DNA of 15,109 bases from a virus. Within the stretch, counting starts at the first letter, position 1. Each line of letters begins with the position of its first letter. The notes beneath the pieces are model-generated. The model did not search any database. It saw nothing but the letters and a program-made list of their open reading frames with translations, and had not been told where the DNA came from. Shown piece after piece: positions 3,482 through 15,109 of this stretch. Both the position numbers and the translations under genes were made by a program. The DNA lies in the UHGV virus genome UHGV-0224297. The stretch is one strand, 5' to 3'.

Positions 3482-4255
3482 CTAATAATTAAGTTTTACA
3501 TCGGCAATAAACAGCAACTGTTTACCGTGTTGCTGCACTTCTTTCCAACCTAGCTTCATAGCAGCGTCAACAACATCTATCATGCTGTAACGAGACATCA
3601 ACGCGGTTGATTTTGTTCCTGACATTAAGTAGAGCGGCTCATTAGGGCAACGGTCGCGAGCATCAGGAAGTTCCCGAGAGACTGCTGATCCTTCGGGTAC
3701 GGTAACAACATGAATCACGGTAAATGGTCTCTTGTGGGTTAAATAGATACGAAACCCAACGTGTTCAGACTCATGAAAGACTTTCTTTACAACCACATCT
3801 TTTAGTGTCGTTTGAACATCAATCCCAGGTAATATCATGGATTCGCGAGAAACGAAACAACGACTATTTTCGACCGTGGAGAAATAATTACGTAACGGTA
3901 AACTGGCGTTATGATCGCGCAGTTTTTTGCTCAGTAGATCGAAGTTCAGTTCTTTAACTTTCTCTAGCCACTCTTTGGCTTGTTGAACGTAATAACTACC
4001 AACGGTGCGATAAGTTAATACCTTACCTGCGCTTACTTTCCAAAGTTTGATGGTTAGTGAGTTTGGCTTATAGCGACGATACTCACCCCGCGTATAGTTG
4101 ATGCGCTCGTAGCGCTCTACATCGTCAATCGGTGCAGATTCGACCGATTGTAACTGCAGCGTACGATCTAATCTATCGGCTAATAGTAGCGATGTTAGCG
4201 GACCTTCGATCATATACGGTTCGGTTTTAAAGATATCGTCTAAATGGACTTTCAT
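3482..4255 (-). CDS. GW-QLLF C-terminal motif family protein (257 aa)
   Basis: ATG at 4253-4255 with AAGGAA RBS. C-terminus LGWKEVQQHGKQLLFIADVKLNY. N-terminus MKVHLDDIF and internal LPGID ... GFRIY are shared with the 6069..6806 product. Confidence 0.75.
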   Translation of the reverse strand: MKVHLDDIFKTEPYMIEGPLTSLLLADRLDRTLQLQSVESAPIDDVERYERINYTRGEYRRYKPNSLTIKLWKVSAGKVLTYRTVGSYYVQQAKEWLEKVKELNFDLLSKKLRDHNASLPLRNYFSTVENSRCFVSRESMILPGIDVQTTLKDVVVKKVFHESEHVGFRIYLTHKRPFTVIHVVTVPEGSAVSRELPDARDRCPNEPLYLMSGTKSTALMSRYSMIDVVDAAMKLGWKEVQQHGKQLLFIADVKLNY

Positions 4256-4322
4256 TTCTATTTCCTTCTTAACAAAAGCCGCGACTAAAGCGCGGCAGTT
4301 AGAGAAAGTATATTTTCACTTA

Positions 4323-5474
4323 TTAAAGGTCAGCAACAAACAGTAGCTGACTGCCATACGGTTCGACAGATTTCCAACCGTAATCTTTACCGATCGTCGT
4401 TAAATGACTGGTAGTTAACTTTTTATCAATCGTCCGCAGATGTATCATTAGCGTATTGGACTCTGCCGCATCAAGTAACATCGCAGGTTCTTTTTCAGTG
4501 CGGTCGTCCGCTTTCGGGAAGAAACTGTAATATTGACTTTTGGGCAGATCGATTGACAACGTATAATTTTTCTTTGTAACGAATAACGCCATCCCTTCGA
4601 AATTGCAATCGAAACGATATTCCCAACCTGCTTCTGCTAAAACGTCTTTTAGCATTTCCATGACTTTAAGCTGATTAACACTAGGCAGTCGGTAAATTGC
4701 AAGACCACTTGGGAAAATGCGTATACCATCGACGACACTATCGGTGGTTTCGTCAATAAGTTCAGGATAACGTTGTGAGAAAATATGATCGCTCTTGCTT
4801 TTCTCTTCAACGTCACGAATGAATTGGGCTAATTCGTCTCTTAAGGCGGACATTTGATTTTCTCCTTTGTCTTCAATAATCAGGTGGGGTTCGCCGCTAA
4901 TTAAAATATGGTAAACGAGGTCGTCGGTAGAACGATAAGTGAGTTTGATAGCTTTATCACTTAACAATTCGTAGCGGAAGAAACTTTCGTACCAACTTAA
5001 GCCGAAATCGTTTTGTGTGAGTTCCTGCTCAACTTTGATGGTTTTTGCTTCAAAGCCGATTAACCCGCTTAATAACGCAAGTTCTGGTTTAGTTAAAATG
5101 GCCATGCCGTGAAAGGGCACTTGTTCAAGCTGAAAACATAAATTACTGACTTTACCACTTGGGAAGACTTTAAACATAATCTTCCGGCTGCTACTCTTTT
5201 CTCTAACAACGAGTTTACGGTAATTTAGTCCACAATTTGAGTAAACCGCGAACTGGTAACCTTCAATTTCTTCATCGTAAGTACAGACATCGACAGGCGC
5301 GATAATCTCATCGTATTCACTAAGTACACAGCAGCCCAAGTTATAACCAAACAACTCGCGTTGTAATGAAGACTCGATGGTTAAGCTTGGCAGAGGCCAA
5401 GTTCGATTATAGCATCTGTCCATCAGTTCTTTTAGGATCTTGGCATGTCCTGGTTTAGAAATAATATTTCGCAT
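4323..5474 (-). CDS. GW-QLLF C-terminal motif family protein (383 aa), with a second degenerate internal copy
   Basis: ATG at 5472-5474 with AAAGGAGAG RBS. C-terminus YGWKSVEPYGSQLLFVADL. A degenerate internal copy reads AEAGWEYRFDCNFEGMALFV. Confidence 0.75.
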   Translation of the reverse strand: MRNIISKPGHAKILKELMDRCYNRTWPLPSLTIESSLQRELFGYNLGCCVLSEYDEIIAPVDVCTYDEEIEGYQFAVYSNCGLNYRKLVVREKSSSRKIMFKVFPSGKVSNLCFQLEQVPFHGMAILTKPELALLSGLIGFEAKTIKVEQELTQNDFGLSWYESFFRYELLSDKAIKLTYRSTDDLVYHILISGEPHLIIEDKGENQMSALRDELAQFIRDVEEKSKSDHIFSQRYPELIDETTDSVVDGIRIFPSGLAIYRLPSVNQLKVMEMLKDVLAEAGWEYRFDCNFEGMALFVTKKNYTLSIDLPKSQYYSFFPKADDRTEKEPAMLLDAAESNTLMIHLRTIDKKLTTSHLTTIGKDYGWKSVEPYGSQLLFVADL

Positions 5475-5503
5475 TTTTACTCTCCTTTAGGGTTTTTCGT
5501 TAC

Positions 5504-6043
5504 TTAAGCAGGGTAAGCTAAGAATAATAACTGCTGGCCGAGTTTACGTACGGTATGCCAGCCGTGCGCTTTTGCTGTTTCTACTAATGTTTCCCAATCG
5601 TCAACGTTGCAACCGTCTTTTTTCAGTTTTGTAAGTAGTGTCTCTGCTTCTTTATCTGTCAGCAATAATCCTGGGTTACTTAACGTACACGTAAGAGGGT
5701 TAGGGAAATACGCGTAGCGTCTTACAAAAGTAAAGTCTACGAGATAGTGTGCTTTCCCCGTGTCTAGAAGCGTAACAACATCCACGCCGCCGTCGTAGGA
5801 CGCGCTCGTCACTTTCCATCCGGTACCGGAAAACAGTTGACTGAATAATTTGGTAAAGATATCCCCGGAACCGCGATAATAAAGCACAGCATCTTCGTTG
5901 ATTTTTTCTATTTCAATACCAGTGATCGTTGTACCCGGTTGGATAACGTTAGACAATATACTGTACGGGCTTTCAAAACGATGTTTACCCACACCCAGGT
6001 TAACAAACTTAATAGCTTGTTGTTTCATTTCGATACTAATCAT
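5504..6043 (-). CDS. GW-QLLF C-terminal motif family protein (179 aa)
   Basis: ATG at 6041-6043 with AAAGGAGAAA RBS. C-terminus AHGWHTVRKLGQQLLFLAYPA. An internal GW is also present (SGTGWKVTSASYDGG). Confidence 0.75.
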   Translation of the reverse strand: MISIEMKQQAIKFVNLGVGKHRFESPYSILSNVIQPGTTITGIEIEKINEDAVLYYRGSGDIFTKLFSQLFSGTGWKVTSASYDGGVDVVTLLDTGKAHYLVDFTFVRRYAYFPNPLTCTLSNPGLLLTDKEAETLLTKLKKDGCNVDDWETLVETAKAHGWHTVRKLGQQLLFLAYPA

Positions 6044-6068
6044 GATATTTTCTCCTTTAGGTTTTTAC

Positions 6069-6806
6069 TTACGCGGTTTTAATTAACAGCAGATAGTCCT
6101 TCGTAAACTCAGCACAACTCCACCCTCTCATCGTGGCGATTTTACGAAGATCAATTTTCTCGTGATATTTCAATAAGGGATCGTCTGAGTTAATCTCAAC
6201 CAGGTGGGTGGCTTTAGAAATCGTTTCCACATCTGGGATCTGTTTTGCTAAGTCGGATGCAATCAGTTCAATAACGCGGTAACCCTTTAACACAGAAACA
6301 TAGATGCGCAAACCATATAGCGTGCCCTCGTCTTCTAATGGACAAAGATCGATGCCGGGTCCAAGCAGTGATAACTCGACGTTATCGGGAAGGTTTTCTG
6401 CATTTCGGAGTAACCCTATCCCATTTCTAAACAGAGGGAAGTAAGAGAATAGTGGTGGTAAAGCCCAACCGTTCCCAATAAGCACATCATCGATACTAGT
6501 AGGCGTGTTCGCAAGAAGACGAATGTGGTCAGCCACAACTTCAAGTTCGGCATCACTGATCAACTTATAGATTAACATGACACTGGTTTCGGTATTAATA
6601 ACGAAGAAGACGCGGTTGGCGTAACTGCCTATCACGTATTCGTCAATCATACAGTCGATAACGTCACTGTCTGGATAATCTTCAGGTTTAATTGTTCCAG
6701 CATCGATTAACTTAGCAGGTTGCGATTGTTTTAATAGTTCGTTAACAACAGTAGAAGAAAGTTCTAAACTGGTGTTAGTAAAGATATCGTCTAATAATTC
6801 TCTCAT
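6069..6806 (-). CDS. GW-QLLF family protein, divergent member (245 aa)
   Basis: ATG at 6804-6806 with a weak RBS; first gene after the divergent control region. C-terminus RGWSCAEFTKDYLLLIKTA is a degenerate form of the motif. N-terminus MRELLDDIF and internal LLGPGID ... GLRIY match the 3482..4255 product. Confidence 0.7.
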   Translation of the reverse strand: MRELLDDIFTNTSLELSSTVVNELLKQSQPAKLIDAGTIKPEDYPDSDVIDCMIDEYVIGSYANRVFFVINTETSVMLIYKLISDAELEVVADHIRLLANTPTSIDDVLIGNGWALPPLFSYFPLFRNGIGLLRNAENLPDNVELSLLGPGIDLCPLEDEGTLYGLRIYVSVLKGYRVIELIASDLAKQIPDVETISKATHLVEINSDDPLLKYHEKIDLRKIATMRGWSCAEFTKDYLLLIKTA

Positions 6807-7224: not shown

Positions 7225-8190
7225 ATGGAGAAATCCAGTGTTGATTTTTTCTCAATTGGTATCGTCGCGGAAGACAAACCCCGTGGTACAGATCGGGTAA
7301 AAGTGATACCAATTGAAACCAACTTTGCTAACCCTACCGTGGTGCAATCTGTTTCTTCAGCAACTGAAAAGACGCATGAAACATCTGGTGCAACAGATAA
7401 CCTAACCATTAAGACGGGTAACACGATAACAGCAAAGTGGTGGAAGTTTAACTCCAACCGAATTAATTCCCCTGACGTTAAACGAGAAGATTACGTTATC
7501 TTGTTACGTTTGGGGAAAACCGATATTTATTTTTGGATTGATCTGAACTTCGCTAACGTTAAGCGATTAGAGGATGCGGTTTATGCGTGGTCTGCTGATT
7601 CTGAAAACCAGATGGCGGATGACCTGTCCAATGCGTATGTGTTGAATATCTCGACGATTGACAAACATATCACGCTAAGAACAAGTATGGTGAACGGTGA
7701 GAAAGCGGCGTGGTTGTTTCAGTTTGATAATGCAAACGGTACGTGGCAGTGTGTTGACCATAAAGGAAACAAGTATTACATTAACTCGGTTGAAGATGAT
7801 CTCGGGTTTGAGAATGCGATGCTTTCAAAAGTGAACATCAACAAAGAAGATGCGTTCATTTATTCAAAGCGTTCTATTAACCTGGAAACGAAAACAATTA
7901 ATGAAAAATGCGAAGTTCGCAATACGGAAGCAGCGAAATCCGTTACGTTTAAAACGCAAACCTGGTTAACGGAAGCAGGGAGTTCGACAACATTTAAAAC
8001 GCCGAACTTTAAACAAGAAGGGAATGAAGCGATGTTCACCGGTAATCTGGAAATCGCTAAGAACTTCAAATACGGTGGTACGGGCAAAGGCGTCGGTGTC
8101 TTTACGGTTAAAGATGCCGTTATTTCTGGTATTACCTTTAGCGTTCACATTCACCAAGGTAAACATGGCCCGACATCACCTCCGCAATAA
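7225..8190 (+). CDS. putative baseplate central spike protein (321 aa; function tentative)
   Basis: ATG at 7225-7227 with AAGGA RBS (7212-7216). The N-terminal region (GIVAEDKPRGTDRVKV ... KWWKF ... DYVILLRLG) resembles, from memory, the OB-fold of P2 gpV-type spike proteins. The C-terminus VHIHQGKHGPTSPPQ resembles the His-rich metal-binding tip of such spikes. The coding call is firm; the functional call is not. Confidence 0.65.
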   Translation: MEKSSVDFFSIGIVAEDKPRGTDRVKVIPIETNFANPTVVQSVSSATEKTHETSGATDNLTIKTGNTITAKWWKFNSNRINSPDVKREDYVILLRLGKTDIYFWIDLNFANVKRLEDAVYAWSADSENQMADDLSNAYVLNISTIDKHITLRTSMVNGEKAAWLFQFDNANGTWQCVDHKGNKYYINSVEDDLGFENAMLSKVNINKEDAFIYSKRSINLETKTINEKCEVRNTEAAKSVTFKTQTWLTEAGSSTTFKTPNFKQEGNEAMFTGNLEIAKNFKYGGTGKGVGVFTVKDAVISGITFSVHIHQGKHGPTSPPQ

Positions 8191-8340: not shown

Positions 8341-8396
8341 TCGGTTGTAACACACGTCGGTCTTAGACCACTAACCTTTTGAAATGGAGAGCTGTT

Positions 8397-8606
8397 ATGT
8401 CTATTAAAGAGTTCTCTTCTGCTGAGCATATTCCAGAAGAGTTTAAGAAAATCGGTAACGTCAGCGCTTTCGGCGATACCGTTGATCATGTAACTGGTAA
8501 ACTGGCTGCTGAAGCCGAAAAAATTGGCGGCGACGCATTCAAAGTTATCGGTATTTCCGGCAACAACAAACTGCACGGTAACGCGATTGTCTACAAAAAA
8601 GACTAA
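8397..8606 (+). CDS. DUF1471 (YdgH/BhsA/McbA-like) domain protein without signal peptide (69 aa)
   Basis: ATG at 8397-8399 with GGAGA RBS (8386-8390). The track start at 8379 is a TTG and an in-frame stop lies at 8364-8366, so no N-terminal extension is possible. The C-terminal FKVIGISGNNKLHGNAIVYKKD resembles enterobacterial BhsA-type proteins as I recall them (ending ...TLHGTAVIYK). No hydrophobic N-terminal segment. Confidence 0.65.
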   Translation: MSIKEFSSAEHIPEEFKKIGNVSAFGDTVDHVTGKLAAEAEKIGGDAFKVIGISGNNKLHGNAIVYKKD

Positions 8607-8609
8607 GCG

Positions 8610-8667
8610 AAAAAAAAAACGTGCTACTCCTACCCTCTTAGAGGGTAGGAGGTTACTTTATTTTTTT
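8610..8667. terminator. bidirectional intrinsic terminator between convergent genes
   Basis: Perfect 11-bp stem CTCCTACCCTC-TTA-GAGGGTAGGAG (8627-8651). Flanked by an A10 run (8610-8619) on one side and a T-rich run (8652-8667) on the other. Sits between the DUF1471 stop (8606) and the minus-strand gene stop (8658). Confidence 0.8.
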
Positions 8668-9920
8668 CGTGCTTTAAAGCGATGCATTTCTAAATACACT
8701 TTTTCCCAGGGACCGAATGGACCAACGATTGCTTGAGCATCGTTAATCTTCTTCTGATTATACCACCGGGCTTCACGAAAGACGTAGTTTTGACTGTCGA
8801 ATTCGGTAGTGTTAAATACCCACTCACCTTCCTCCCACGTAGGCCAATAACCTACCGTCTTACCAAATCGATTATTTAAGTACCCTAATGGTTTTTCAGA
8901 ATCAGGATCGTTGGGGTCCTTGAGGTAACAGCGTCCCCAAACGGCGTTATGCGAAACACCCACAACTTCTTCTTCTAAATACGGATTATCTACCGTAAAG
9001 ATAAAAGAGGATTCGTGGAGTAAAAGCGCCTTCAGTGTTTCAGGGTTACGAATACGTTGAACGTTGGTAGGCGATGATAAATCCCCTACACCGATGCTAT
9101 CCCAGTCGTAATAACGGCGGGTTTCCAGAACGGTCCGTGCAAGATCAAAATTCGGTAAAGAAATCATGATCGCACGGTCAGAGAAATAACCGTCCGGGGG
9201 CAACCAACGTAACAATCCGCCTATGACGAAACCCACGGTTTTCCCCGTAATAGACTCAGGCAGCGATATCATTAACGTGGAGTAATAGTCGCGTGTAGTG
9301 TCGAGCTTGTTTAGCGTAAGGTTGGCGATTGGATAGGTTTTAACATTCCCTAGCTGACCAAAAACCATACAGCCAATATCTGGCGTACATGCTCTCCGTA
9401 CGATTTTACCGGCCCCAGGCAATCGAACACCTACGGTATCCGTCTGGTGTGGTACCCATTGACCGTTAATGTTGTACAGCACACTATTACGGTATTTGTC
9501 TTTCCACTTGTCCTCACAAACGACGACAACGTCATCAGCATCGTCTAAGCTGAAATCTTGACTGTGGTGGTACCCTGGTGGACACAGATATGTTTCGACA
9601 GGTACATCGGCATTAATTGATTGGTAGTGTGCCCAACTGAATTCCAGTTTCGGCAATCCAGCCTTTAGAGTGGGAATGACGTTTCCGGCCTTTTCGTTTA
9701 ACCAATCTTGTAAAGTGTCTGTTCGGTTTTGTAGTTCAGCAAGATGGTATTGACTGACTAACGTATAGTCTTTACCAAGTGCACTTAAACCGATCTCAAA
9801 GGTGTGGTAGTCTGAACACAACGTAGTTAAGGGTTGCGTGACATCGATGGCTCCCCAGGTACGGGACTCTCGAGAGAAGCCAAAAGCGCTGTCGGGCCGC
9901 ACTTGATAAGCAGTAGTCAC
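8658..9920 (-). CDS. hypothetical protein (420 aa), Trp/Tyr-rich, possibly structural or enzymatic
   Basis: Long ORF with GTG start at 9918-9920 and a GAGG box about 10 nt upstream; no in-frame ATG near the start. Stop at 8658-8660 lies inside the bidirectional terminator region. Transcribed opposite to both flanking plus-strand genes. Confidence 0.65.
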   Translation of the reverse strand: MTTAYQVRPDSAFGFSRESRTWGAIDVTQPLTTLCSDYHTFEIGLSALGKDYTLVSQYHLAELQNRTDTLQDWLNEKAGNVIPTLKAGLPKLEFSWAHYQSINADVPVETYLCPPGYHHSQDFSLDDADDVVVVCEDKWKDKYRNSVLYNINGQWVPHQTDTVGVRLPGAGKIVRRACTPDIGCMVFGQLGNVKTYPIANLTLNKLDTTRDYYSTLMISLPESITGKTVGFVIGGLLRWLPPDGYFSDRAIMISLPNFDLARTVLETRRYYDWDSIGVGDLSSPTNVQRIRNPETLKALLLHESSFIFTVDNPYLEEEVVGVSHNAVWGRCYLKDPNDPDSEKPLGYLNNRFGKTVGYWPTWEEGEWVFNTTEFDSQNYVFREARWYNQKKINDAQAIVGPFGPWEKVYLEMHRFKARKK

Positions 9921-9989
9921 AGCTCTTTTTCCTCTATAGATTCAAGTCATAGTATGAACTTCGACGCCCACGGACTATAGGAGTAGATA

Positions 9990-12900
9990 ATGGCTGTCGT
10001 CTTAGACCCACACTTCAAAAAACCGGGGAATAAAATAACCGGTGAAGCGGTCGCCGTCATTGGTACGAAATACCGAATGTTGGTACCTGCCCACGCCCCT
10101 TTTTTCACCACATCCCTGGTGGTCAAGAGCGGCGGCAAAATACTGACCTTAGGCGACGATTACGTTATTACACACCCGTACGAGACTGGTATGTTGCGCA
10201 CAGCCTATCTCATTCACGGGATGATTTGGATTGTTAATGACAAATACAAATCGAATTTTACTGTAGATTACCATGCTGTTGGTTGTGGTGAAGCAACCCA
10301 AGAGCAGATTACCGCAGAGCGCGAGCTTAATAAAGGTAAATACCCCTCCGCGTGTCAGTGGGACACCGTCATCGGAGACGTTTACTTTCCACCGGTCGAT
10401 ATCCAGTTCGATTGGGAGAATTGGAAAGGTGAACTGGAGCTAATGCAGGCCATTGCTGGGGTAGGCGATTCGTTAGGGGAAGTCGTGAGTCGACTTAACC
10501 CAATCGCGCGCAATACACTGGATTTGGAATATCGTGCTAATAGTAAGGTTATCACTTCCGAGCAGTATGCCGCGTACGACAATAAAGGCGGTTTCACCTA
10601 CAACACAGCTCGCCACCGTTATAGCTTGAGTTATAACGCGACAACCTTTAACGACTATTCCCTGTTGGTGAAACACAGAATTCCTGCTATTCTGCCAGAC
10701 ATGACAAAGTTGAATCCGAACGAACAGATCGATTGGATGCTCTGTTATGCCAACGGCGGTGCAAGCATTCTACGGTTACAGCTAAAACAGCGCAAAATCT
10801 CACTGGTCTTAACTGTCGCTATTGGCAGTGGTTCAACAAACTACGATTATACTTTAATCAACGGTTTAACTGACGATGAGTTAAAAAACGATATCGATTT
10901 TAGTGTAACCCGACAACCCGGAAACGGCGTTTACGTAATCGTAGTAAAAACAAATAAACAGACCATGGATTATACATTCAACGTCGATACGCCGCCTGAT
11001 GAGTTCTCGGCAGGGTATTCGAAAACGGATGTAGCCAAATGGTTGAAGTCTAAAACGAACATTAACCTGAACTGGTATGCGGCTGAAAACGATTATATTC
11101 AAATTCGTTCTTTACCCGGTGCGCCGGAGCCTGACGTCGATAACGATGTTTACCAGTTAATAGTTAAGTATCATCAGTTGGTTGAGCAGCTGTATCGTAA
11201 TGCGCCTGCGCACGAACACGTTACACGTAAGGACAACCCACACACAGATACGTGGGGTCCGATCCGTGCGTTGGAGTTGAACGGCATTGCGTCGGATGCA
11301 GCGTTAGCTTACGGGAAAACGAAGCCGCAGTTAACGGATTATGTTAATGCTAAGTATCCAACACAAGCGACGTTGACAGCACAAAAGAAACTATTGCGCA
11401 CGTCAGCTTCGAAAACAGCCGACGGAACCATTGGAACGCTACCCGGTTTTACTTCGTTCACGACAGAAGTTGATCCGGTTTCGATGTCTAAATACGTGAA
11501 CCCTTATTTTAGCGAAAGCTATGTTCGTCAAGGTCACACGTATCATGGCGCGCTTCGTTACACAGGAACGAAGAATGGATTTAGTGCTTCTTTTAATGCG
11601 GTGCCTGCCAACCTGCAAGATATTGACTTTATTGTTACCGGACGTAAAACAGCGTCAGGTAATGAAGCAGTCGGTACGGCTGGTTTACGTTTCTACGAAA
11701 ATCCCGGTAGTAACTCCGGCAAGTACGTAGAAATTATCGGTCAAATCTGGGGAGGTACTCTTACTATCGAACTGGCGTTGCACGGTTACGGGAATCCGGT
11801 ACCGTCAGTTCGGTATATTTCTCAAGCTCCTAATCCGGCAATACCGGATGGGGATTTTACGCTGCGTTTTCAACTGAAGCGTACAGGGAACGTGTTTGAC
11901 GCCGTTATTACCGTAAATGGTAAAACGTATAGCGCTCGGATTAACTTCGATAACATGGACGCTGCGTTAGAAGCATTGGAGAATCGGCATCACTTTAAAT
12001 CGCTGATCAATAATGTTGCCGATGGCGTCACTATTAGTTCGCAAAACAAAGGTAACACGGTTACCATTAAGAAAGCACCTGACGTCGTTGACGAGACACG
12101 TTTAGGTGCCCAGTTTGTCGTTGACCCGAAATCCATTAAGTTCATCGGCCAAGGTTCTACCGATGTTAACGTGGGTAATAACCCGGTAACGTTGCAAGCG
12201 GGCGATAACCAGCTTGTGCTATACCCCGATGACCGTGGATTACTGTGGCGTGGTAAGAAGCTCTTAGACCCCACCACGGTAGCGCCGTATTTGCCGGGCA
12301 ATACTGCAGGCGGAACGGGATTATTCTACGGTGCATCTACAGCTACGGTGGAGCTTACCGGTAGCGGGATTAAAGCATCACCATTCGTGGCAACGTTCAT
12401 TCTTCCGGTTGCCGAAGACGTTACTACGTTAGCGTGTTGGCAGTTAACGGACGAATTCGGTACGGCTGAAAACCTCGCGGCAACCCCTGCGTTAATCGAA
12501 AAACTGGACGCTGAGTTTACCGGTAAATTGGTTGCAGCTAAATCGTACATTAACGACATGCAACTTACCAGCTCAGTTACTATCGACAAAATTACCTTTG
12601 GTTTGGGTAACGTTGCGAATACACCCGATGTCGATTTGCCGATCTCTACAGCACAGCAGGCGGAGTTAGATAAATATTCGCCTAAAGTACACCACCACCC
12701 ATTTACCGCATTTGGTACCGGGAACGCAACCACCGCGAAACGTGGCTTGATTAAATTTGGTCTGGATGTGGACGATGCGACTTTAGCACTCGATGGTAGT
12801 GTGGTAATGGCGCAGACTTCCCAGATTGAAAAATTGGAAAATGCTGTCGGTGGCGTTGACTCGGAGGCACGTCTTGACATTATACGTTTTGGTAAGTCAG

Positions 12901-14312
12901 GTAACGACTTAATTGATGTTACGGTCAAAGACAAAATTCTGGTTACACTTCCAGCCTCAACGTATTATATCGGTGGTGAAACGTACGCCGTGCCGTTGAT
13001 GACGATTAACGTCAGTGAACGTTTTCCGAAATTGAATACGGAAATCTACGCGGGGATTTTTGTTGATATTGTTGACAACAAAGCGAAGTACATCATCCAC
13101 GACAGCTACAGTCAGGCTGAAACGGATACCATGACGCGTGTGGGATTAATCGGCGTCAATGACCTTTCTGAAGTGTTCGTTACAGAGATGCGTAATGTCA
13201 CACGGCTGGACGATTTCCGTGAACTGAAAGATCATGCTGCTGACGATAACGCACATATTCATCGCTCCACGACACGTGCAGTGCTTGGGTTAGCTAACTT
13301 AACAGTAGGTGCGCCCTGCTGGGCTTCTGGACTCCAGGCAGTAGTACGTGGTGAAGCAGACTGGCGTTATGTTGTCGGTGGACAGTATAAAGCCTTAGAC
13401 GGGGTGAAATACGACCAGATCGCATCAAGGTGGATTTTCGATGCGAAAGGGGTAAGTGATAACGTTCACGGGTTTATTCACAACCTATTCCCGACTTTCA
13501 AAAACGCAGGAATGCGGGTAAGTTGGGAAACAGAAAGCAACGCAAAAACCGGAACAGTGTTAGAAACTGTTTTAGGTTGTTGGAAGAACACCGACGGCGA
13601 GCTTATGCGGTTGTCATTACTTATCACTCGCGGTTATCGTTTAACTGACAGTAACGGTGAATATTGTTACGCAGGGTTCGGTTTGAACTTCGGTAACGGG
13701 AAATCGGTAGTGATAGGTTTCACACCAACGAAGCGTGTCACAGCTGCACCGTGGAGTTCATTACAACCCGAAGTATCGTTTACCCACAACCGTGGTGCGG
13801 ATAACGCAATAACGTTTAATGCAAGACTGATCTTAGCGGGGACTGCGTATACTGTTGTTGTGCATTTATCTGCGACGGACAAATACGTAAGCTGTACGGC
13901 GGCAGGAGGAACTACGCAGAAAATCCCATTAGCTGACCGTTTAACAGGGTTCAATATCGAACCTATCGTTAACGATCCGTATACCCCTATTTACTACGGT
14001 TTAGGGGGACTTTATGAGGATGAGGTCCGTGCCGATATCCGTTCTGCGGGAGATAGCGCAACTGCGAATAAAGTCTACGGTACGTTGTTGGACTATATTA
14101 GCAACTATTCCTCATTAAATCGTGTGCGCGTTATGGAATTGACCGGTGTCAGTTCAGACCCCGAAACGCTTAATGCGTTAGTGGCAACTGAATTTAATAA
14201 CAGCCTGGCGGATTACGCTGCGTTACCGGTACCTCCTTATCTTAACAAGGAGCGCGTAATGTCGTTTATCGACACCAACAATAAAGTGCAGGCGGTAATC
14301 ATTCGCGATTAA
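9990..14312 (+). CDS. giant protein (1440 aa), probable virion structural protein (tail fibre or baseplate-associated)
   Basis: Uninterrupted 4.3-kb ORF with ATG at 9990 and AGGAG RBS (9979-9983) 6 nt upstream. Composition is rich in G/T/N/V/D/Y, as in beta-rich fibre proteins. No Walker A motif, polymerase motif or YD repeat was seen. Confidence 0.85.
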   Translation: MAVVLDPHFKKPGNKITGEAVAVIGTKYRMLVPAHAPFFTTSLVVKSGGKILTLGDDYVITHPYETGMLRTAYLIHGMIWIVNDKYKSNFTVDYHAVGCGEATQEQITAERELNKGKYPSACQWDTVIGDVYFPPVDIQFDWENWKGELELMQAIAGVGDSLGEVVSRLNPIARNTLDLEYRANSKVITSEQYAAYDNKGGFTYNTARHRYSLSYNATTFNDYSLLVKHRIPAILPDMTKLNPNEQIDWMLCYANGGASILRLQLKQRKISLVLTVAIGSGSTNYDYTLINGLTDDELKNDIDFSVTRQPGNGVYVIVVKTNKQTMDYTFNVDTPPDEFSAGYSKTDVAKWLKSKTNINLNWYAAENDYIQIRSLPGAPEPDVDNDVYQLIVKYHQLVEQLYRNAPAHEHVTRKDNPHTDTWGPIRALELNGIASDAALAYGKTKPQLTDYVNAKYPTQATLTAQKKLLRTSASKTADGTIGTLPGFTSFTTEVDPVSMSKYVNPYFSESYVRQGHTYHGALRYTGTKNGFSASFNAVPANLQDIDFIVTGRKTASGNEAVGTAGLRFYENPGSNSGKYVEIIGQIWGGTLTIELALHGYGNPVPSVRYISQAPNPAIPDGDFTLRFQLKRTGNVFDAVITVNGKTYSARINFDNMDAALEALENRHHFKSLINNVADGVTISSQNKGNTVTIKKAPDVVDETRLGAQFVVDPKSIKFIGQGSTDVNVGNNPVTLQAGDNQLVLYPDDRGLLWRGKKLLDPTTVAPYLPGNTAGGTGLFYGASTATVELTGSGIKASPFVATFILPVAEDVTTLACWQLTDEFGTAENLAATPALIEKLDAEFTGKLVAAKSYINDMQLTSSVTIDKITFGLGNVANTPDVDLPISTAQQAELDKYSPKVHHHPFTAFGTGNATTAKRGLIKFGLDVDDATLALDGSVVMAQTSQIEKLENAVGGVDSEARLDIIRFGKSGNDLIDVTVKDKILVTLPASTYYIGGETYAVPLMTINVSERFPKLNTEIYAGIFVDIVDNKAKYIIHDSYSQAETDTMTRVGLIGVNDLSEVFVTEMRNVTRLDDFRELKDHAADDNAHIHRSTTRAVLGLANLTVGAPCWASGLQAVVRGEADWRYVVGGQYKALDGVKYDQIASRWIFDAKGVSDNVHGFIHNLFPTFKNAGMRVSWETESNAKTGTVLETVLGCWKNTDGELMRLSLLITRGYRLTDSNGEYCYAGFGLNFGNGKSVVIGFTPTKRVTAAPWSSLQPEVSFTHNRGADNAITFNARLILAGTAYTVVVHLSATDKYVSCTAAGGTTQKIPLADRLTGFNIEPIVNDPYTPIYYGLGGLYEDEVRADIRSAGDSATANKVYGTLLDYISNYSSLNRVRVMELTGVSSDPETLNALVATEFNNSLADYAALPVPPYLNKERVMSFIDTNNKVQAVIIRD

Positions 14313-14325
14313 GGAGAATTTTTTG

Positions 14326-15109
14326 ATGAAAGCGTATCCTTACGATCCTCGGGGGACGAAAACCGAGAATCACTTCTTAGAGGAGCGTATCATCGGGTCA
14401 GAAAACAACAACGATCGGGTGGTGATTTTAGACCATCGCCCGTTCTTTGAAGATTTAGTCGTCAGACAACCAGGTTCAACCACCCCACTGAGTCGTGGGG
14501 TGGACTACGAACTGCAATATCAGCTGACGGAACTGGATGACTCGGTAGCAGCCAACGTGTATTGTGGGGTACACCTTATCAACCCTTCTATCAAAGGTAT
14601 CGTAACCTTTGAAGGACAAATGCTCGGCGGTACGTTCTACGACCCGTTTGTTGATATTCTCGATGAACTGGTGAAATATTTGAATAACCCAGTCAGCGCT
14701 GACTGGTTGTTATTAGAAGGCAGACCGTCGTTATACCCGGCTACGCCTGCGGCAACGTCTTGGGCGGATTTGCTAAACAAAAAATATTTAGCGTCGGCAG
14801 TCCACGATGTTGAATTGAAAACCGATGACGCTAACCAGTTAATTAAAGATAAATTAGCCGAAGTTAAAGCGTTAGTCGCCGCGCTGGGTAAAGAAATCGA
14901 GGCATTTAACTACCCGGCACACATCGCGGAAACCAACCCGCACCAAACTACTTCTGCACAGATTAGCGCACATCCTGTTAACTTGAAAACACCCGACACC
15001 TTTATGGCGTACGGGTTAAAGTTGAAAGCACTGACGGATGAGCTGAAAGCGTTTCGTTTACCCCAGTCAGTTATTGACACGTATATCTCCCACTGGATTT
15101 CTTCAGAAG
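14326..15109 (+). CDS. hypothetical protein, 5' part only (runs off the window)
   Basis: ATG at 14326 with AAGGAG RBS at 14311-14316, directly after the giant ORF stop (14310-14312). Open to the window end. Likely co-transcribed with the giant gene. Confidence 0.75.
   Translation, partial: MKAYPYDPRGTKTENHFLEERIIGSENNNDRVVILDHRPFFEDLVVRQPGSTTPLSRGVDYELQYQLTELDDSVAANVYCGVHLINPSIKGIVTFEGQMLGGTFYDPFVDILDELVKYLNNPVSADWLLLEGRPSLYPATPAATSWADLLNKKYLASAVHDVELKTDDANQLIKDKLAEVKALVAALGKEIEAFNYPAHIAETNPHQTTSAQISAHPVNLKTPDTFMAYGLKLKALTDELKAFRLPQSVIDTYISHWISSE

Follow-up and report, generated by a model that had tools for sequence, protein, structure and literature searches.

What does the 1440-amino-acid (aa) protein encoded in UHGV virus genome UHGV-0224297 do for its phage, and which of its parts would meet the host? 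The stretch analysed here, the window, is 15,109 nucleotides (nt) long, and residues of the protein are numbered aa 1-1440. Taken together, homology searches, structure prediction and comparison across the family make it probable that the protein is a baseplate-anchored tail-fibre subunit, one of three paralogues, presenting lectin-like host-binding modules. The fibre and anchor part of this proposal is the strongest and very likely holds, and binding of the host surface by the predicted jelly-rolls is the slightly favoured outcome.

The open reading frame (ORF) translates without a break over 4.3 kb, and its ATG is preceded at 6 nt by a GGAG Shine-Dalgarno sequence (Table 1). The next gene begins at an ATG at 14326, 14 nt past the last stop base; the spacer is 13 nt long and includes a further GGAG, at 14313-14316. 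An earlier description made from the letters alone, hereafter the sequence-only reading, had these particulars right. M1-A2-V3 is invariant in 31 family representatives, and the start codon is therefore fixed. At the base composition of the window ~5% of codons are stops, which by our own calculation gives p ~1e-33 for 1440 stop-free codons; the open frame is thus not due to chance.

The window is 96-98% identical to contig L006 (AAIDUY010000004.1), a 223,009-bp contig in the assembly of a Salmonella Weltevreden isolate, and proteins 76-99% identical to that of the window are encoded on 215-227-kb contigs from isolates of Salmonella, E. coli and Shigella. An exact-sequence look-up of the window protein found no record of it, and P0002, a 99% identical protein, stood in for it in locating L006. 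Among deposited phage genomes, coverage of the window does not exceed 14%. A genus known only from bacterial assemblies, 'Bapsvirus' (Chimalliviridae), was recently proposed, and the phenomenon of the 'bacterial assembly-associated phage' was described with it (PMC12768965). Hosts and synteny agree and fit a Chimalliviridae jumbo phage of a ~223-kb 'Bapsvirus'-like lineage related to Seoulvirus and SPN3US. The lineage is of the lytic jumbo type; the deposited phage collection contains none of its genomes, which are found as complete contigs in isolate assemblies of Salmonella, E. coli and Shigella.

The sequence-only reading had placed the protein in an unrecognised family, which is not borne out. 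The protein matches PHROG 7557 ('virion structural protein') in two stretches (expect value E=0, 1423 bits), and a tblastn search recovers full-length homologues from 78 jumbo phages, whose hosts include Salmonella, Erwinia and Klebsiella; identity to gp170 of SPN3US and its relatives is ~54%, with 86-91% of the length aligned. In blastp, aa 1-494 align with SPN3US gp170 residues 1-492 at 69% identity and aa 701-1440 with residues 495-1237 at 44%. These alignments show the protein to be the orthologue of SPN3US gp170, which lies at the same module position and in the same orientation and has the same N-domain, domain A, His motifs, shaft and D, E and F domains. The two differ in a 206-aa LamG-like domain (aa ~495-700), which gp170 lacks and the window protein carries at the junction of region B and shaft, and in the C-terminal domains, which are only 32-44% identical. 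Mass spectrometry of SPN3US virions detected gp170, which was put among the baseplate/tail fiber candidates and in paralogue family C (PMC5694885), and its amount falls more than 10-fold in tailless 255(am107) particles (PMC10052503). Thus, as a gp170 orthologue of the phiKZ gp131 family, the protein belongs to an already known kind. Neither a Pfam-A scan at E up to 1 nor an NCBIfam scan of the protein gave a match, and sequence searches of the PDB with the single protein or the family profile returned chance-level matches only, in a copy of the PDB that apparently does not hold the phiKZ atlas chains. The silence of Pfam and NCBIfam is in keeping with the earlier statement that T4-fibre, YD, Walker and polymerase motifs are lacking, and extends to the repeats and domains of T4-type long tail fibres (gp34-gp37).

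The N-terminal domain provides the link to the baseplate. In hhalign, the family profile of this domain matches the N-termini of phiKZ gp131, gp133, gp134 and gp135 over 133 columns with ~30% identity (Prob 98.5%, E=2.5e-15; reversed control, 0.34). With blastp, the same domain matches the phiKZ gp131 type at E=1e-7, and no sequence match extends past gp131 aa 169. When the N-terminal 160 aa were used in tblastn, 170 phage records were matched, 57 of them Pseudomonas phiKZ-like. After the N-domain comes a predicted helix in which F140, D141, W145, E148, L151 and M152 are invariant. In the phiKZ cryo-electron microscopy atlas, gp131, gp133, gp134 and gp135 form a fibre base docked under the outer-baseplate protein gp130, and the virion has 12 baseplate fibres (PMC13250141). 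The helix of the window protein would be consistent with the six-helix bundle of that fibre base. The gene layout in phiKZ is also the same, with gp130 on the minus strand followed by gp131-135 on the plus strand; both phages thus have a homologous N-domain followed by a helix, a paralogue array divergent from a gp130 homologue, and a spike homologue nearby. The proteins differ beyond the anchor. phiKZ gp131 has 771 aa and ends in a seven-bladed beta-propeller, and phiKZ gp133-135 have ~460 aa, whereas the window protein has 1440 aa with three predicted ConA-like jelly-rolls and a long conserved shaft, and no propeller. For the C-terminal half there was no Foldseek match to a beta-propeller and no such block in the AlphaFold2 model, whose confident blocks there are a ConA-like sandwich, a small beta domain and an alpha/beta end. 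The anchor domain is held in common with gp131 and the gp131 tip is not. Furthermore, a hetero-hexamer was shown for phiKZ only. The 'gp131' of the RAY core-genome paper is an unrelated helicase.

The protein was modelled with AlphaFold2 as two overlapping halves, from a family alignment of 32 sequences, giving a mean predicted local distance difference test (pLDDT) of 64 and 62. Confident blocks cover aa 10-110, 190-380, 520-695, 974-1070, 1120-1350 and 1380-1440, and the jelly-roll calls rest on confident blocks only (pLDDT 75-93). The models show three predicted jelly-rolls of ConA-like/LamG type, in domain A (aa ~190-380), in an insertion termed INS (aa ~505-695) and in domain E (aa ~1120-1350). 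Foldseek against the PDB matched the N-terminal half to tandem LamG/LNS pairs (laminin LG 5xau_D at E=8e-10, neurexin LNS, Gas6 and botulinum toxin HC) and the C-terminal half to the legume lectin 1q8q (E=2.7e-5), SasG 7smh (an A-domain lectin), PL7 lyases and GH16 enzymes. The likeness to laminin LG, neurexin LNS, the Gas6 LG pair, botulinum toxin HC and the SasG A-domain lies in the predicted jelly-roll fold, and such LamG/LNS and legume lectin domains typically bind ligands (sugar or protein) and often occur in tandem. The similarity is at the level of fold only (7-14% identity), with no Pfam match. The coordinates of all features are given in Table 1.

Table 1. Features of the window, with nucleotide coordinates and the basis of each assignment
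Feature	Coordinates	Strand	Basis
ORF, 1440 aa, ATG to TAA, no break in translation	9990..14312	+	orthologue of SPN3US gp170
Shine-Dalgarno GGAG, 6 nt before ATG	9980..9983	+	read directly
phiKZ gp131-like anchor domain (aa ~4-137) and conserved helix (aa ~140-165); aa 1-165	9990..10484	+	hhalign, blastp, tblastn, AlphaFold2, invariants
Domain A, predicted LamG/ConA-like jelly-roll, aa 185-385	10542..11144	+	AlphaFold2 pLDDT ~80-90; Foldseek tandem LG/LNS
Region B, conserved helix and first His motif, aa 386-499	11145..11486	+	common to paralogues gp169 and gp168
INS, predicted inserted second LamG-like jelly-roll, aa 500-700	11487..12089	+	gap versus gp170; AlphaFold2 pLDDT 75-92
Conserved candidate shaft region, aa 701-975, common to gp169	12090..12914	+	21% invariant; PHROG tail-fibre families
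HHH, family-invariant HxH motif, aa 901-903 (KVHHHPF)	12690..12698	+	H901 and H903 invariant
Domain D, small beta domain, aa 976-1075	12915..13214	+	AlphaFold2 pLDDT ~80; hhalign gp168 aa 1302-1403, E=1.6e-8
Linker with third His motif, aa 1076-1114	13215..13331	+	RE..DH....NAH..R; H1082, H1089, R1092 invariant
Domain E, predicted ConA-like (legume-lectin/glucanase-type) jelly-roll, aa 1115-1355	13332..14054	+	AlphaFold2 pLDDT 85-93; Foldseek
Domain F, small C-terminal alpha/beta domain, variable, aa 1356-1440	14055..14309	+	AlphaFold2
gp173-like gene, homologue of phiKZ gp164 (central spike / 'baseplate assembly protein')	7225..8190	+	blastp E=9e-23; PHROG 3216 E=1.7e-112
gp172-like small protein with YdgH/BhsA/McbA-like domain	8379-8606	+	PF07338, E=1.7e-9
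gp171-like gene, divergent, phiKZ gp130 homologue	8658..9920	-	blastp 22%/412 aa, E=2e-11; phmmer 1.8e-12; PHROG 3337
Next fibre paralogue, gp169-like, cut by window end	14326..15109	+	68% identity to gp169 aa 1-261; PHROG 8078

Between the jelly-rolls lie the conserved segments. Region B contains the His motif APAHxHV..KDNPH, with H410 and H418 invariant. Among the long stretches, aa 701-975 is the best conserved; this segment matches gp169 in hhalign at E=6.5e-8 and has a pLDDT below 50 in the AlphaFold2 monomer; it carries the fibre-type motif GLGNVxNxxDxxLPxSxxQ, and its GLGNV/HxH segment (aa 842-937) gives weak matches to PHROG tail-fibre families. We infer that aa 701-975 form an oligomeric shaft. 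The HHHH run of the sequence-only reading is really HHH, of which HxH is the family-invariant part; in other phage fibres (T4 gp37), such HxH motifs coordinate metal ions along the trimer axis. The cysteines remarked on for the C-terminal half are there (five of eight), yet none of those five is conserved, C122 being the sole invariant Cys of the protein. In a BFVD search, the matches of the aa 691-1440 model outside the family include a Bacillus phage PBS1 protein with a collagen-like domain (E=1.8e-8, 342 columns). PBS1 is a flagellum-binding jumbo phage, and the coexistence of this match with the flagellum-dependent infection of SPN3US may be a coincidence.

Conservation is distributed unevenly over this map. 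Scored over the 31 family representatives, the fraction of invariant positions is 30% in the N-domain, 22% in region B, 21% in the shaft, 15% in the linker, 10% in D, 5% in F, 3% in A and 2% in E. Variation is concentrated in the jelly-rolls, and the remainder of the protein is conserved. The clearest case is domain A. One family member, P0092, has a backbone of the window type (shaft 94% and E 87% identical to the window protein) with a domain A only 21% identical to that of the window protein and 89% identical to that of the Seoulvirus-type protein P0132. Conversely, P0132 and P0128 are 91-100% identical to SPN3US gp170 except in domain A (18-21%). Five family members of ~1020 aa have no domain A at all. 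Together, these alignments show domain A to behave as a cassette, exchanged between lineages and missing in some. A hypervariable distal region had been anticipated; the most exchangeable part is instead the N-proximal LamG-like cassette (aa ~185-385), not the C-terminus alone. Among close cultured Seoulviruses there is no cassette swap, the domains A of SPN3US, Lh1B, SPLA5c and EC001 being ~95% identical; domain A of STsAS differs (19%), but the STsAS protein is diverged throughout, and a swap of domain A on a near-identical backbone is seen only in assembly-derived variants.

Substitution rates along the gene point in the same direction. Among six members of the lineage (window, L006, L012-L015), the rate of synonymous substitution (dS) ranges ~40-fold along the gene, from 0.03 to 1.3; codons 1-80 and 1401-1440 have values of ~0.03-0.05, codons 161-240 of ~1.2-1.3. 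Such swings indicate mosaic recombination with probable breakpoints inside the gene. The ratio of nonsynonymous to synonymous rates (dN/dS) is 0.05-0.17 over the whole gene, a sign of purifying selection. The highest value in a window of 40 codons, 0.58, comes from a stretch nearly free of substitutions (dS 0.03); leaving that aside, the peak is 0.29, at aa 561-600 within INS, which is the main clear hot spot of the gene and has the highest entropy among 89 close homologues. Further hot spots lie at aa 201-240 and 1241-1280.

INS itself is a 206-aa insertion (aa ~495-700) that appears as a blastp gap in SPN3US gp170. It had no tblastn match in 50,697 phage records, and exhaustive phmmer against 1.84e9 representative proteins returned its own cluster only, in a library that is incomplete (it missed P0169). 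In IMG/VR, INS occurs only on ~225-kb contigs of the window lineage, at 68-93% identity. P0169 (1444 aa, on a 23-kb Salmonella third-party annotation (TPA) contig) combines an STsAS/SPAsTU-type backbone with a copy of INS at the same position, with ~40% identity over the domain and ~45% over a wider aligned stretch, and its closest relatives, P0168 and STsAS, have no INS. This distribution implies either whole-domain transfer or repeated loss at a precise junction. The profile of INS matches that of domain A in hhalign (E=1.4e-8 across 177 columns; in local mode, 7e-7), with weak controls (reversed A, 0.012; domain E, 0.32), and INS is thus a second, diverged copy of the same module type. The link comes from profile-profile comparison only, a blastp self-comparison for internal duplication having given nothing significant. 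The dN/dS of INS is 0.13 and it is thus a functional domain. Across the family the copy number of the LamG-like module is 0, 1 or 2, and these comparisons show INS as an extra copy restricted to the lineage and P0169, under purifying selection.

The neighbourhood agrees with a place in the baseplate. Gene order in the window and, beyond its end, in L006 is identical to SPN3US gp173/172/171/170/169/168, with gp171 on the minus strand. The gp169-like protein also has a gp131-like N-terminal domain and matches phiKZ gp131, gp134 and gp135. In L006, where they are present in full length, three large fibre paralogues stand side by side (gp170-, gp169- and gp168-like; 1440, 1400 and 1727 aa), and the 1400- and 1727-aa proteins are ~48-49% identical to their SPN3US counterparts. 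The claim that the 1440-aa ORF is the gene most informative for host range is not supported, as two further large fibre genes stand beside it and all three products are about half identical to their SPN3US counterparts. In L001 and L006 the three have different pieces in common (region B and shaft with gp169; domain D with gp168 aa 1302-1403), and in SPN3US their spectral abundances are alike and close to that of the 12-copy portal. Alike abundances and common pieces leave open a hetero-oligomeric fibre.

How might such a protein work? The N-domain and helix would dock beneath the gp171-like protein and share a fibre base of several subunits with the gp169- and gp168-like paralogues, in the manner of phiKZ gp131/133/134/135. 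The conserved B and shaft segments would oligomerise, probably as a trimer, and the HxH-type motifs may bind an axial metal as in other phage fibres. The three lectin-like modules would then project from the shaft and bind the host surface, either glycans or the flagellum used by SPN3US, and their gain, loss and swapping would tune host range. In SPN3US the tails touch flagella via the baseplate and fibres, where gp168 is the paralogue named 'tail fiber protein' (PMC7411985), and flagella are needed for infection (PMC7411985, PMC11428620).

Several points weigh against this proposal. The virion and tail location is taken from the SPN3US orthologue, the phage of the window being known from genes alone. 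AlphaFold2 confidence is mediocre (mean pLDDT 62-64), and TM-scores (template modelling scores) of single domains are modest (~0.3-0.5). No conserved ligand site is apparent in the invariants, and the Pfam LamG and lectin models do not match. The oligomeric state and partners would follow phiKZ, whose small paralogues (~460 aa) and propeller tip differ. Receptor binding is not pinned to any one of the three paralogues. Finally, no 40-codon window has dN/dS above 1, so that a residue-level arms-race signature is lacking and only cassette exchange is seen.

The alternative that survives best, which we regard as unlikely though worth weighing, is purely architectural: the jelly-rolls would hold protein-protein contacts inside the tail, for example with the other paralogues or folded-back fibres, and the gp169- and/or gp168-like proteins would bind the receptor. 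Of several phiKZ gp131-like paralogues, just the N-terminal part enters the fibre base (PMC13250141), and the name 'tail fiber protein' went to gp168 (PMC7411985). Purifying selection over the whole gene and the lack of identified sugar-binding residues would also suit internal contacts. However, the jelly-rolls are the least conserved parts of the protein, at 2-3% invariant, and domain A is swapped between otherwise 91-100% identical proteins and dispensable in some lineages, which fits an outward specificity module better.

The outward-facing, host-binding proposal could also be taken further. The three modules may form a multivalent, combinatorial adhesin in which INS, together with cassette exchange of A, allows attachment to surface glycans of several enterobacterial genera, on a fibre that is perhaps a heterotrimer of the paralogues, as their common shaft segments might suggest, and not three homotrimers. 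This is speculative and we give it little weight. If true, such an adhesin might also favour the persistent, carrier-like association through which these lytic jumbo phages are co-sequenced with their hosts (Salmonella, E. coli and Shigella isolates). A parallel exists in the carbohydrate-binding module (CBM) decorations of phage tails, such as evolved Dit and BppA in lactococcal siphophages, where beta-sandwich binding modules sit on conserved tail scaffolds and vary in number. The lactococcal modules belong to another phage class and scaffold, with no sequence relationship, and sugar binding is demonstrated there whereas it is predicted here.

It is improbable that the protein is a fibre-borne polysaccharide-degrading enzyme, in which domain E would be a PL7-type lyase or GH16-type glycanase acting on capsule, O-antigen or biofilm. 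Foldseek does match domain folds of this kind, including the PL7 alginate lyase 2z42 (E=1.7e-4), a glucuronan lyase and GH16, and the model of the N-terminal half matches alginate lyases as well, but lectins outscore the enzymes. The invariants of domain E are only R1126, R1207, N1233 and G1337, without the PL7 Arg/Gln/His/Tyr set, aa 1115-1355 contain no GH16 ExDxxE, and no Pfam or NCBIfam enzyme family matches. The enzyme reading was rejected on this lack of conserved catalytic residues.

A head-associated or ejected protein, suggested by the 'head and packaging' category of PHROG 7557, 8078 and 2163 and by old phiKZ annotations that call many proteins 'structural head protein', is hardly credible and was rejected on the proteomics of the SPN3US tailless mutant (PMC10052503), the phiKZ gp131-type anchor domain and the location among spike, dock and fibre genes also standing against it. 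Neither enzyme homology nor absence from virion proteomes, the two findings named beforehand as able to unseat a fibre, was observed, the proteome being that of the SPN3US orthologue. What remains of the sequence-only reading is the fibre-type virion protein, supported through an SPN3US gp170 that is present in virions and depleted in tailless particles, and what falls away is the unrecognised family, the most informative gene for host range, the hypervariable distal region and the HHHH run.

Other genes of the window are less easily placed. The gp172-like gene sits between the spike and fibre-dock genes, and PF07338 is a family of bacterial periplasmic stress/biofilm proteins; virion presence was reported for SPN3US gp172 (7 kDa). 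On the minus strand, five small ORFs of 129-161 aa stand in a row at 558-2760 (558-947, 958-1368, 1380-1865, 1884-2276 and 2299-2760), each with a hydrophobic, signal-peptide-like N-terminus, and look like a cluster of secreted or periplasmic proteins; the counterpart of ORF 2299-2760 on a near-identical contig has a YfjT (PF27224) match in the gene table. Also on the minus strand, at 3482-6806, four tandem ORFs (257, 383, 179 and 245 aa) form an apparent paralogue array with a common C-terminal motif, GW...(G)xQLLF(I/L/V)AD, and a single weak PHROG match (phrog_26772, to aa 296-379 of the 383-aa protein).

The domain map, the three predicted ConA-like modules, the cassette behaviour of domain A and the lineage-restricted LamG copy appear to be new, no prior description having been found in our literature searches. 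Little is understood of the fibres of nucleus-forming jumbo phages (Chimalliviridae), the phiKZ fibre base being the only one seen, and within the SPN3US group, phages applied in the biocontrol of Salmonella, no domain has yet been assigned to receptor binding. By separating the conserved anchor and shaft from the candidate host-binding modules, the map points to exact boundaries for host-range engineering of Seoulvirus and 'Bapsvirus' phages.

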